Source: Candidatus Poribacteria bacterium
GTDB lineage: Bacteria; Poribacteria; WGA-4E; WGA-3G
Direction of reading: 5' to 3'
Length of the DNA stretch: 53,261 nt
Assembly: GCA_022822215.1 (NCBI GenBank)
Contig: JAJECD010000218.1
Location: 1 to 53,261, forward strand
Made by a program: the position numbers and the translations under genes. Shown piece by piece: positions 4,696 to 8,254 of the stretch. The notes under the pieces were generated by a model, which saw only the letters and a program-made list of their open reading frames with translations, was not told the origin of the DNA and did no database searches. Position 1 is the first letter of the stretch, and each line of letters starts with the position of its first letter.

Positions 4696-5982
4696 ATGAC
4701 AAAGGCAGATTCACAGCAGACGATTCAAGGGGAAATAACAATTACGGGAAAGGGGTTAATGTTAGGGGAACCTGTAACACTAACCTTGAAACCCGCAGCA
4801 GCAGACTTTGGGATTGTCTTTCGGCGTATCGATATAGCGGACGCGCCAGAAATAAAGGTGTGTCCCGATAATTGGGCAGACGTTCTACCAAGATGCACCA
4901 GTTTACGCAGTGGTGAGGCGACGGTTAGCAGTGTGGAACATATCCTCTCTGCGCTTGGTGGCTTAGGTGTTGATAACGCAATAATCGAATTGGACGCACC
5001 AGAGCCGCCGGGGCTTGATGGTGGCGCGAATCGGTATGTTGAAGATATTCAAGCCGCAGGGCTTGTTCCACAGGATGCCCAACGCAACTATATTGAGGTT
5101 GCTGAACCATTTTCACTTTCTGCTGGGGATAGGCAGCTCGTTTTACTTCCCGCTGACGCGCTGGCGGTAACTTTTGTTTATGCGCATCCGCAAACGAACT
5201 CGCAAGTCTTAACCCTTGAAATAACGCCGGAGTCTTATGCACGTGATATTGCACCGGCTCGAAGTTTCTGTTTTGAGAATGAAATTGAAGCCCTTCAGGC
5301 ACTCGGTATCGGTAAAGGCGCGAGTTATGATAATGTCCTCGTTATCAATGAGAGTGGAGAACCCAGTGTACCACTCCGGTTTGAAGATGAGTTTGTCCGA
5401 CACAAAATCCTTGATTTGATTGGGGATCTTTATTTGGCCGGTCGTTTGCCAAAGGCGCAGGTTATCGCGATGCGGACGGGACATACGTTCCATGCGGAAT
5501 TTGTGCAAGCCCTCGCTGAAGCTGGACATCTTCAACAGGTGCCCGTTCAGGAACCTATTGAGGTGATGGATATTTATGAAGTGTTACCGCATCGCCATCC
5601 GATGTGTATGGTCGATAGGGTCATTGAATATGAAAGTAAAAAGCGTGCTGTTGGTATCAAGAACGTGACGTATAACGAGCCTATTTTTGAAGGACATTTC
5701 CCCACGCAGCCTGTGATGCCGGGCGTGCTACAGATTGAGGCACTTGCACAACTTGCGGCGTGGCTTGTGCTACGGGATATCGGTAAGGAAGGCGAACTCG
5801 GTTATTTTCGCTCTATCAGCAAGGCGACGTTTCGTCGTGCCGTTATTCCGGGGGATCAGCTTCGGTTGGAGATAGAGGTGGCGCAGCTAAGGAGCAGGAT
5901 TGCACGCATCGAAGGGCGCGTTTATGTCGGCGATCAACTTGCCACAGAGGCGGAACTCTCAATCGTATTAGCGTCTGTTTGA
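4696..5982 (+). CDS. lpxC: Bifunctional UDP-3-O-acyl-GlcNAc deacetylase / 3-hydroxyacyl-ACP dehydratase (LpxC-FabZ fusion)
   Basis: LpxC motifs SVEHILSAL and FVRHKILDLIGDLYL. FabZ motifs LPHRHPMCMVDRV and FEGHFPTQPVMPGVL sit in the C-terminal ~140 aa. Confidence 0.9.
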   Translation: MTKADSQQTIQGEITITGKGLMLGEPVTLTLKPAAADFGIVFRRIDIADAPEIKVCPDNWADVLPRCTSLRSGEATVSSVEHILSALGGLGVDNAIIELDAPEPPGLDGGANRYVEDIQAAGLVPQDAQRNYIEVAEPFSLSAGDRQLVLLPADALAVTFVYAHPQTNSQVLTLEITPESYARDIAPARSFCFENEIEALQALGIGKGASYDNVLVINESGEPSVPLRFEDEFVRHKILDLIGDLYLAGRLPKAQVIAMRTGHTFHAEFVQALAEAGHLQQVPVQEPIEVMDIYEVLPHRHPMCMVDRVIEYESKKRAVGIKNVTYNEPIFEGHFPTQPVMPGVLQIEALAQLAAWLVLRDIGKEGELGYFRSISKATFRRAVIPGDQLRLEIEVAQLRSRIARIEGRVYVGDQLATEAELSIVLASV

Positions 5983-6052: not shown

Positions 6053-6877
6053 GTGATAGAAACTAACATTCACCCTACGGCTATTATCTCTCCAAAAGCG
6101 ACATTGGAAGAAGGGGTTAAGGTTGGACCGTACAGTCTTGTCGGTGAAGATGTTCATATCGGGCGTGGCACTGAGATTGGTCCACATGTTCAGATTGAGA
6201 AGTGGACGACTATCGGTGAGGCATGCAAAATCTACTTCGGTGCGACCATCGGTAATGAATCTAAAGACCTGAAATACGGGGGTTGGCGGAGTTATGTCAA
6301 GATTGGCAACCGCAATATACTTCGTGAGTACGTCTCTATTTCCAGATCAACGTTTGAGGAGGGTGCAACGGTCGTTGGGGACAACAATCTGTTGATGAAT
6401 TGGGTTAACCTTGCGCACGACACTATCGTCGGGAATAGGACGATTATGGCGAACTTTGTTTCACTGGCTGGGCATGTTGTAATTGAAGATGATGTTCGGT
6501 TGGGCGCGCATGCAGCGTTGCACCAATATGTCCGCGTTGGTAAGATGGCGATGGCGGGCGGTTTCTCGAAAATTGTTCAAGATATTCCACCGTTCGCGCT
6601 TTCTGCTGGGCAACCGGCGCGTGTGCGGAGTCTCAACCGACTCGGGATTCGGACCTCACGGATTAATCCTTTATCACAACTCACGCCTGAAGCACTGGCG
6701 GCACTCAAAAAAGCGTTTCGTATTTTGTTCCGCTCAGGACTCCCGCTCAGACATGCTGTCACCAGAGTCAAGGAGGAGCTCGAAACGACCCCGGAAGTTG
6801 AATATCTACTCCAATTTATCGAAACTTCTAAACGTGGTATTGGATTCAGCCAACCCAATCGTGTCTTGAGCAGCTGA
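6053..6877 (+). CDS. lpxA: Acyl-ACP--UDP-GlcNAc O-acyltransferase
   Basis: GTG start after GGAGGG. IHPTAII N-terminus, left-handed beta-helix hexapeptide repeats, helical C-terminal domain. Confidence 0.85.
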   Translation: MIETNIHPTAIISPKATLEEGVKVGPYSLVGEDVHIGRGTEIGPHVQIEKWTTIGEACKIYFGATIGNESKDLKYGGWRSYVKIGNRNILREYVSISRSTFEEGATVVGDNNLLMNWVNLAHDTIVGNRTIMANFVSLAGHVVIEDDVRLGAHAALHQYVRVGKMAMAGGFSKIVQDIPPFALSAGQPARVRSLNRLGIRTSRINPLSQLTPEALAALKKAFRILFRSGLPLRHAVTRVKEELETTPEVEYLLQFIETSKRGIGFSQPNRVLSS

Positions 6878-6915: not shown

Positions 6916-7719
6916 GTGGAAAAACTCGGTATTATTGCAGGCGCAGGCGAGCTGCCGGTGCTGTTGGCACGTGCCGCTGTTGCTCATGAACGACAACCTG
7001 TTATCGTCCAAATTACGAAATCTGACGCGCAGCGTTTTGCTGGGATCACCGATGAACTTCACACCTATGGCGTTGGTCAGATTCAAAAGATTGCCCGGAC
7101 GCTTCTTGATTCAGATGTAAAAGAGGTTGTAATTATCGGGAAAGTCGAAAAAAATATTCTACTCCGTCCATTTCAGATTGATGCGACGACCATCAGGATT
7201 TTAGTACAAAACCGACGTAAGAGACCCTCCGCTATTGTTAGCGCAGCACTTGCCTATCTTGAATCCGTTGGGCTGACAGTCCTCACCCAAGATCAGTATC
7301 TCCACCATCTTCTCCTACAACCCGGCGTTTTAACGGCGCGACAACCTACAGCAAATCAATGGGCAGATGTTGAACTCGGTATTCGTACCGCTCGTCAGAT
7401 AGCGAATATGGATATCGGGCAGACGGTTGTCGTTAAAAATCAGATTGTGATCGCTATGGAAGCCATTGAAGGGACGGATGTAACAATTCAGAGGGGTGGC
7501 AATTTGGGAAAGAAAGGAGTTGTGGTTGCGAAGGCATCGGCGGGGCACCACGATTTCCGTATTGATGTGCCAACGGTCGGTATGCAAACGCTAAAGGTGT
7601 TGCATCAGGTTGAAGCGAGTGTGCTTGCGGTGGAAGCACGACGCACTTTTGTTATGGACGTTGATGTGCTTGTTAAGGAAGCGGATCGGTGTAAGATCGC
7701 GCTTGTTGCTGTGGAATAG
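6916..7719 (+). CDS. lpxI: UDP-2,3-diacylglucosamine pyrophosphatase LpxI (DUF1009 family)
   Basis: LGIIAGAGELPVLLARAA N-terminus, ~267 aa, position directly after lpxA. Confidence 0.7.
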   Translation: MEKLGIIAGAGELPVLLARAAVAHERQPVIVQITKSDAQRFAGITDELHTYGVGQIQKIARTLLDSDVKEVVIIGKVEKNILLRPFQIDATTIRILVQNRRKRPSAIVSAALAYLESVGLTVLTQDQYLHHLLLQPGVLTARQPTANQWADVELGIRTARQIANMDIGQTVVVKNQIVIAMEAIEGTDVTIQRGGNLGKKGVVVAKASAGHHDFRIDVPTVGMQTLKVLHQVEASVLAVEARRTFVMDVDVLVKEADRCKIALVAVE

Positions 7720-7723
7720 CAGT

Positions 7724-7745
7724 CAGCGGTCAGAGCTGACCGCTG
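7724..7745. terminator. Perfect 10-bp inverted repeat between convergent lpxI and the selenoprotein gene (hairpin; no U-tract)
   Basis: CAGCGGTCAG-ag-CTGACCGCTG. Confidence 0.4.
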
Positions 7746-7766
7746 ATTGCCAATCGCCGATAGCCA

Positions 7767-8000
7767 TTATGCTGCTGCGTCTATAGCACTTGTTATCTGC
7801 TCTGTCGTCGGAAACTCTCGAGTTTTTAATTTTGAATAGAGCAGTGTCCGGTTTAACGAAACTTCAAAAGCCCCACCACTACCCGGAATTAAATCGACAG
7901 TTATAACCCCGGCACCATATTTCTGTTTCAAGGCATCTGCCAAACTGGCTGCCCGTGGTTGGTAGTTTCAAGCGGTGCAGTATTCAATCCTGACTTCCAT
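7767..8000 (-). CDS. SelW/Rdx-family thioredoxin-fold selenoprotein (CxxU), with in-frame UGA at 7970..7968
   Basis: GGAGGAG lies 6 nt upstream of the ATG (8000..7998). Read-through translation: MEVRIEYCTA-U-NYQPRAASLADALKQKYGAGVITVDLIPGSGGAFEVSLNRTLLYSKLKTREFPTTEQITSAIDAAA*. The pattern IEYCxxU..RA..L(x)nL.PG.GG.FEV..(x)nSK..(x)FP matches Rdx/SelW-like proteins. Absent from the ORF track because of the TGA. Confidence 0.75.
7931..7954 (-). promoter_or_regulatory. Candidate bacterial SECIS hairpin, 13 nt downstream of the UGA
   Basis: mRNA GGGCA-GCCA-GUU-UGGC-AGA-UGCCU: 5 bp + 4 bp stems, a 3-nt bulge, and a GU-containing apical loop. Confidence 0.5.
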
Positions 8001-8254
8001 GGGTTTCTCCTCCTGATTCATTTCTTGACGTTACCTATCAAAGTGAATTTCGATTCTTCCTTTTGAAATTCTATCATACATACTGAAAAATTGCAAATTT
8101 TTCGCGACTCGGAAGCGTTTTGTAGCGTAAACTGTTAGTTTGTGTGTCCGCGTGATTCCCGAATCTCAGATGAAAACAAAAGGCTTGCGTTGTGAGCGCA
8201 TTCCACTTATAATCTTTTCTACAAAATCTAAGTGGTACGAGGGAGATAAGAAAT

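Follow-up and report, generated by a model that had tools for sequence, protein, structure and literature searches.

The SelB-binding hairpin of Escherichia coli fdhF, a SECIS element, carries G23 and U24 in its apical loop together with a bulged U17. A G in the loop's first or second place is a hallmark of bacterial SECIS elements (PMC1088965; PMC13582414), while those of eukaryotes are located in the 3' UTR and have a different structure (PMC1088965). Among the prokaryotic selenoprotein families of the Sargasso Sea data, the SelW-like proteins ranked first in abundance, with 48 genes (Zhang, Fomenko and Gladyshev 2005), and members bearing a CxxU motif are present in many bacterial genomes, with few Cys homologs in organisms that use selenocysteine (Sec) (Zhang 2005; Zhang et al. 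2006).

Here we analyze a locus of this kind from Candidatus Poribacteria, contained in a stretch of 53,261 nucleotides that was analyzed as a whole and is called the window from here on. Taking together the protein family, the predicted fold, the position of the UGA, the conservation among orthologs, the constraint acting on a hairpin at the RNA level and the use of TGA as a normal stop, we consider it very probable that positions 8000..7767 hold an intact SelW-like gene of 77 residues, whose UGA is recoded as Sec via the standard bacterial pathway.

A gene of the Rdx family with an in-frame UGA

Reading the minus strand from 8000 to 7767 yields a read-through protein of 77 residues, MEVRIEYCTA-U-NYQPRAASLADAL..., interrupted by a single in-frame TGA at 7970..7968; the translation past this codon, NYQPRAASLADALKQKYGAGVITVDLIPGSGGAFEVSLNRTLLYSKLKTREFPTTEQITSAIDAAA, runs to a TAA at 7769..7767. 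A GGAGGAG is located at 8013..8007 of the same strand, with 6 nt between its end and the ATG. The program-made list of open reading frames shows at this locus only a fragment of 58 aa with a TTG start (7943..7767). An in-frame ATG located further upstream, at 8021, was considered as the start and rejected: it is not conserved, and the ribosome binding site would fall inside that frame. The features of the locus and its surroundings are collected in Table 1.

Table 1. Coordinates of the SelW-like gene, its signals and the neighbouring genes in the window.
Feature	Position	Strand	Basis or remark
LpxC-FabZ/FabA-like dehydratase fusion, single ORF	4696-5982	+	Pfam LpxC, positions 1-267 of 268
lpxA	6053-6877		Pfam; precedes lpxI
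lpxI	6916-7719		Pfam; convergent with the SelW-like gene
GC-rich hairpin in the gap of the convergent pair lpxI/SelW-like gene	7717..7752	.	dG -26.8 kcal/mol, z = -4.09; 0/200 shuffles as stable
SelW-like (Rdx family) selenoprotein CDS	7767..8000	-	77 codons + TAA; predicted Sec at codon 11; family, fold, orthologs
SECIS-like hairpin inside the CDS	7931..7954	-	Minimum-free-energy fold, RNAalifold consensus, synonymous constraint, covarying upper stem in distant genes
Hairpin lower stem	7954-7950 paired with 7935-7931	-	
Hairpin upper stem	7949-7946 paired with 7942-7939	-	
Hairpin loop GUU	7945-7943	-	
Hairpin 3' bulge AGA	7938-7936	-	
In-frame TGA, predicted Sec codon, residue 11	7968..7970	-	TGA in every Poribacteria locus read; aligned with second Cys of CxxC homologs
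Cys8 codon TGC, opening the CxxU redox motif	7977..7979	-	Same codon at all Poribacteria genome loci read
Start codon ATG	8000..7998	-	Direct reading
Shine-Dalgarno AGGAGG	8009..8014	-	8 nt upstream of ATG; kept in all orthologs
Putative extended -10, TG-n-TAGAAT	8068..8076	-	17 nt after the -35; promoter scan and upstream alignment
Putative -35 hexamer TTGCAA, with an A-tract before it	8091..8096	-	Promoter scan and upstream alignment
Short-chain dehydrogenase	8255-9001		Pfam; divergent from the SelW-like gene

For the comparisons against protein profiles Cys was put in place of the UGA. In this form the protein matched the Pfam Rdx family (PF10262) from end to end (E 3.1e-24, profile positions 1-73 of 74) with 85.4 bits against a cut-off of 22.6, the truncated ORF of 58 aa reaching 50 bits on the same profile, and scored 69.6 bits on TIGR02174 (CXXU_selWTH), whose cut-off is 34.2. 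The best-scoring NCBIfam model was NF041051 SelTWH_Campy (E 2.7e-24, profile positions 1-69 of 70); as its 85.2 bits lie below the curated cut-off of 88, the protein was not assigned to that equivalog. Sequence matches in the PDB were 2fa8 (E 6e-10), 2ojl, 3dex, 2obk, 2p0g, human MIEN1 (2ljk) and mouse SelW (2npb), and in these alignments CTA-U is placed on CTQC (2fa8, 2ojl) or on CEPC (2ljk), the U occupying the column of the second Cys.

Moreover, an AlphaFold model built on 14 orthologs (pLDDT 93, pTM 0.83) predicts a thioredoxin-like topology, beta1(2-8)-CxxU-alpha1(14-28)-beta2-beta3-beta4-alpha2, and the 23 best Foldseek matches in the PDB were all SelW-related proteins, SelW or MIEN1. 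By its profiles, its CxxU motif and its predicted fold, the protein is a member of the Rdx, or SelT/SelW/SelH, family. The preliminary description of this DNA had proposed this family, with U in its Cys/Sec column, and a 77-residue read-through of a TGA-split frame preceded by a GGAGGAG; our analysis found the gene, its binding site and its frame exactly where that description placed them and agrees with it on the family and on the column.

At codon 51 (7848-7850) the window encodes Arg (NRT); Gly (NGT) is found there in most orthologs and in every one of its closest relatives (97% identity). One change at the first codon position accounts for the difference, which falls in a loop between beta3 and beta4.

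Conservation of the UGA and the meaning of TGA in the window

When one genome was scanned for each GTDB species, 327 related stretches came up, of which the best 80 were kept; all of these belong to Poribacteria, with protein identities of 64-97%. Cys-x-x-TGA was found at codons 8-11 in 80/80 of these Poribacteria loci (best 80 of 327), and residues 1-10 and 12-77 are conserved, that is, on either side of the TGA. Where the 5' end fitted the start pattern, the ATG start and the TGC for Cys8 were present in every case (78/78 loci). No Cys form was seen at the UGA site among the Poribacteria sequences recovered. Homology therefore extends to both sides of the UGA, as had been expected of the read-through reading, and a genuine stop followed by unconserved sequence was seen in none of the 80 orthologs (best 80 of 327).

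Predicted proteins from metagenomes show how the codon has been handled by annotation. In 12 independent metagenome gene calls a W stands at the UGA site of a full-length protein, which corresponds to TGA translated under genetic code 4, and the remaining sequences, NCBI entries included, are truncations of 57-58 residues. When 1.84 billion cluster representatives were searched exhaustively, 406 relatives were retrieved, and the motif was read in the best 150 of these: CxxW was present in 77, CxxC in 43, CxxG (TGA under code 25) in 8 and WxxW in 2. Representative P0029 (3632 aa), the top match of this search, was discarded as spurious, being a repeat protein. Cys homologs at the column of the UGA, a mark of selenoproteins, are thus found in 43 of the best 150 representatives, and all solved bacterial homologs are of the CxxC type.

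One could still take the UGA for a genuine stop, the real gene being the ORF of 57-58 residues that starts at TTG 7943, or the locus a decaying pseudogene. The ORF list and the public annotations, among them NCBI entries under the name 'SelT/SelW/SelH family protein', indeed offer only 57-58 aa, and TGA works as a stop elsewhere in the window. However, the ten codons that precede the TGA, the ATG, the AGGAGG and the putative promoter are conserved in all orthologs across a protein divergence of ~35%, while TTG 7943 lies inside the hairpin described below and has no ribosome binding site. The short product would moreover lack beta1 and the CxxC/U active site, which define the fold, and it loses on Pfam Rdx the difference between 85.4 and 50 bits; as for a pseudogene, it would not retain the very same lesion in each of the 80 species recovered (best 80 of 327). 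We regard a genuine stop as very unlikely, and the gene at 8000..7767 is almost certainly intact despite its apparent disruption by a stop codon.

TGA is the terminator of 6/38 long ORFs in the window. Both lpxC/fabZ and lpxA end at TGA with their Pfam domains complete at the C-terminus; as these two genes and four other long ORFs terminate in this way, the genetic code is not reassigned. When the unassigned gaps of the whole window were inspected for further pairs of ORFs linked through a single TGA, nothing convincing was found besides the SelW-like gene.

These data bear as well on the possibility that the UGA is read as Cys, Trp or Gly, whether by near-cognate decoding, by a reassigned code or by recoding of the tRNA-ReC/allo-tRNA type. 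Gene calls under code 4 or 25 do give full-length proteins with W or G, and tRNAs have been described that recode UGA, inserting Cys at SECIS-directed sites (PMC13582414). Nevertheless, TGA terminates the six ORFs just mentioned, with complete C-terminal domains in lpxC/fabZ and lpxA, and the site itself corresponds to the catalytic Cys/Sec column, in a family with well-documented Sec forms; a hairpin of SelB type with a conserved G-U loop has been maintained, and SelA, SelB and SelD have been reported in Poribacteria genomes (see below). Insertion of a standard amino acid is consequently a highly improbable alternative to Sec.

A SECIS-like hairpin and its covariation in distant genes

Thirteen nt past the UGA the mRNA can form the hairpin GGGCA-GCCA-GUU-UGGC-(AGA)-UGCCU, which spans nt 17-40 counted from the U of UGA and has its loop, GUU, at nt 26-28. 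This is the minimum-free-energy fold. Its dG of -10.5 kcal/mol was not exceptional when compared with shuffled sequences (z = +0.29 for 61 nt and -1.12 for 46 nt, range to -1.3); as the free energy is ordinary, stability was dropped as an argument, and the significance of the hairpin comes only from comparative data.

Synonymous variation was analyzed in 76 distinct Poribacteria genes. Codons 16-23, corresponding to nt 16-39 from the U of UGA, read CGG GCA GCC AGT TTG GCN GAT GCC with almost no synonymous change (CGG 70/70, GCC 76/76, AGT 76/76, TTG 74/76), whereas equally conserved residues elsewhere in the gene use 3-6 codons each. The mean normalised synonymous entropy was 0.07 for codons 16-23 vs 0.60 elsewhere (Mann-Whitney p = 2.7e-5), this being the lowest 8-codon window of the gene, and the sites that do vary within the hairpin, loop nt 28 and bulge nt 33-34, are those predicted by the structure. 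RNAalifold run on the Poribacteria genes recovered the same hairpin.

Covariation within Poribacteria is essentially nil, the upper stem being invariant; pair 21-36 is broken (A.A) in 17/53 distinct sequences, and pair 17-40 is found as G-U, A-U or G-C. Since covariation is essentially absent, the support that Poribacteria lend to the hairpin is that of conservation, which coding constraints could partly explain. Rfam at its gathering threshold gave no match in the whole window, and it may hold no suitable model of bacterial SECIS.

Because the near-invariant stem of Poribacteria is uninformative on pairing, distant members of the family were examined. Metagenome DNA was searched with the pattern ATHGARTAYTGYNNNNNNTGAAAYTAY, in which only I-E-Y-C-x-x-UGA-N-Y is fixed and no constraint is placed on the hairpin region, and 111 distinct SelW-like UGA genes from outside Poribacteria were placed in a gap-free alignment. 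A stem formed by nt 19-24/30-35, in the same register, was paired in 91.1% of the cases vs 77.0% in shuffles, with compensatory changes at all six pairs. Cells with double changes numbered 88 vs 21.9 in shuffles, a value reached by 0/500 of them, and the covariation score was 0.455 vs 0.184 for shuffles and at most 0.154 when the partners were slid. RNAalifold found this stem independently in the 111 genes, whose loop follows N-G-U-N-Y, with G26 in 110/111 and U27 in 105/111.

The window shares with this family-wide element the pairs 22-32, 23-31 and 24-30 as well as the G-U loop. Only 3-4 of the contiguous pairs of other clades (6-7 there) are retained in the Poribacteria hairpin, where a 3-nt bulge together with an alternative lower stem takes the place of the lower part. 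The hairpin that the preliminary description had drawn at this place, and had called SECIS-like, is present, it is under strong selection at the RNA level in Poribacteria, and its upper stem corresponds to the covarying stem-loop of the distant genes. That codons 16-23 are instead held by some other overlapping signal (an internal start, a regulatory site or the target of an sRNA) or by codon bias on a conserved helix is extremely unlikely, for although the stem is conserved in Poribacteria with no compensatory change, RAASLADA is also conserved at the protein level and the hairpin is thermodynamically ordinary, the codons of the six-fold degenerate Arg, Ser and Leu are fixed, the only free positions are those of the predicted loop and bulge, and the stem in the same register covaries at six pairs in 111 distant genes where shuffle and slid controls fail.

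Residues 18 and 21 were found to co-vary (A-A, V-T, L-R, S-E, T-V) in the manner that Watson-Crick pairing of their codons requires (columns 22-24 and 31-33 of the A6 alignment, metagenome loci L084-L204). The RNA structure of the SECIS thus shapes the protein sequence at these two residues.

A subgroup of four metagenome genes (L145, L159, L167 and L194) carries IEYCEK-UGA-NYLPRVKMLIDK and a long insertion before the GAFEV motif, with no hairpin in the usual register; in these genes the SECIS, if any, is therefore located elsewhere.

Two further loci have a TGA at both redox positions. One of them, a Poribacteria-type ortholog with about 2x coverage (L083:209-225), reads TAC TGA ACG GGC TGA, and the other, a 44%-identical relative seen in two contigs (L084:286-302), reads TAC TGA GGA ATG TGA; the cluster representatives P0038 and P0072 show 'WGMW'. 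Judged by their sequences, L083 and L084 may be UxxU (di-selenocysteine) variants served by one SECIS, and because of the low coverage a sequencing error is possible in L083.

Returning to the recoding of the window's UGA as Sec, we infer actual Sec insertion, SelB binding and redox function along the following lines. The active site would be Cys8-Thr-Ala-Sec11, with the UGA at 7970..7968 read as Sec. SelB charged with Sec-tRNA(Sec) would dock on the mRNA stem-loop of nt 17-40, with its loop G26-U27-U28, and the docked SelB would supply the ribosome with Sec, so that termination does not occur. A reversible selenenylsulfide would then arise within the Cys-x-x-Sec pair, and the protein would be a small thiol-dependent oxidoreductase.

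Genomic context, host and comparison with known systems

The SelW-like gene is situated between genes of lipid A synthesis and a divergent short-chain dehydrogenase, beyond which lie a DUF983 protein, a sugar transferase and a glycosyltransferase, and the gene order around it is repeated in other Poribacteria contigs. The LpxC-FabZ fusion also occurs in other Poribacteria contigs. In two other Poribacteria loci the short-chain dehydrogenase and the SelW-like gene have a gene with a TonB_C domain between them (L001:2156-2959 and L002:8777-9613); the window has no such gene and shows instead a divergent intergenic region of 254 nt (8001-8254). In another part of the window, positions 1564-2181 comprise 618 nt with no long ORF, in which a Kelch-like fragment of 65 codons (1624-1848, +) ends at a TGA followed by only 8 codons; it looks broken or frameshifted and not like a selenoprotein.

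Upstream of the SelW-like gene, an alignment of 80 distinct sequences, the window included, shows the motif AAAAAACTTGCAATTT with >90% of its columns conserved, and the -10 consensus among orthologs is TGGTAaAAT; these elements would form a putative promoter. Downstream, the GC-rich hairpin lies in the 47-nt gap between lpxI and the SelW-like gene and overlaps the lpxI stop codon. The terminator scan passed over this hairpin because it has no T-run; a function as bidirectional terminator is possible.

The close relatives of the gene all come from Candidatus Poribacteria, which are sponge symbionts. ARAGORN detected no tRNA in the window, hence no tRNA-Sec there, and tblastn searches of the window and 82 loci with approximate E. 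coli queries gave no match to SelA, SelB or SelD. Genes for this machinery have been listed by Slaby et al. 2017 (Table S4) for Candidatus Poribacteria WGA-3G, with two copies of SelA, one of SelB and one of SelD, and the same table has the three proteins for bins 70 and 44 of Poribacteria as well. One of our orthologs with TGA (L060) comes from WGA-3G. According to the same study, most sponge-symbiont bins contain SelA together with SelB, which are enriched in sponge symbionts, and a 2026 study describes Sec-type hydrogenases in Poribacteria. In the full-text literature searched we found no paper tying Poribacteria to SelW; selenoproteins in the phylum are mentioned there only for the hydrogenases.

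Because the UGA is present in all 80 orthologs recovered (best 80 of 327) with no Cys form seen, and because the gene is always found beside the lipid A genes lpxC/fabZ-lpxA-lpxI, one might go further and see in the SelW-like protein an obligately Sec-type core protein of the whole phylum, in a family that may include UxxU variants made from one SECIS. We put this forward only tentatively, as a rather doubtful extension; if true, it would mean that Poribacteria sponge symbionts depend on selenium.

The gene provides evidence for Sec decoding throughout Poribacteria and fits the enrichment of SelA and SelB reported in sponge symbionts. For annotation the consequences are direct, as the public Poribacteria records hold a fragment of 57-58 residues with no active site and need to be corrected, while gene calls under code 4 on short contigs put a false Trp at the UGA. 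The family-wide alignment offers a clean case of RNA structure dictating co-variation at residues 18/21 and could serve to build a SelW-specific model of bacterial SECIS. The known mechanism of Sec decoding is unchanged by the finding, whose value lies in annotation and ecology.

The preliminary description overrated the novelty of the gene, bacterial SelW-like selenoproteins being known since 2005; as these have already been described, the Poribacteria gene is a correct but ordinary addition to them. What is new, in a narrow sense, is Poribacteria as a SelW phylum and the remodelled stem of the SECIS. With the described bacterial SelW-like selenoproteins the gene has in common the Pfam/TIGRFAM family, a CxxU with Sec in the second position and a small single domain, and in both the UGA is followed directly by the SECIS, whose small apical loop contains a G. 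Differences reside in the host phylum and in the stem, which in Poribacteria has 4 bp, a 3-nt 3' bulge and an alternative lower stem of 4-5 bp, in contrast to the 5-7 contiguous pairs of the others.

Structural comparison by Foldseek relates the model to the bacterial SelW-related proteins of Cys type, namely Atu0228 (2fa8), BpR68 (2ojl), 2obk, 2p0g and 3dex, with TM values of 0.86-0.92, rmsd of 1.2-1.7 A and identities of 25-33%; these solved proteins have CxxC and about 100 residues and need no recoding signal, whereas the Poribacteria protein has CxxU. Mouse SelW (2npb) and MIEN1 (2ljk) share the Rdx fold, with a TM of about 0.80 and their CxxU/CxxC in the same position, at an identity of ~27-33%. 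Finally, E. coli fdhF and the window both have a stem-loop within the coding sequence about 11-13 nt after the UGA, with a G-U apical loop. The likeness is one of functional analogy: G26/U27 of the window correspond to G23/U24 of fdhF, the loop lying one codon further from the UGA, and the stem, of different sequence, has a 3-nt 3' bulge in place of the bulged U17.
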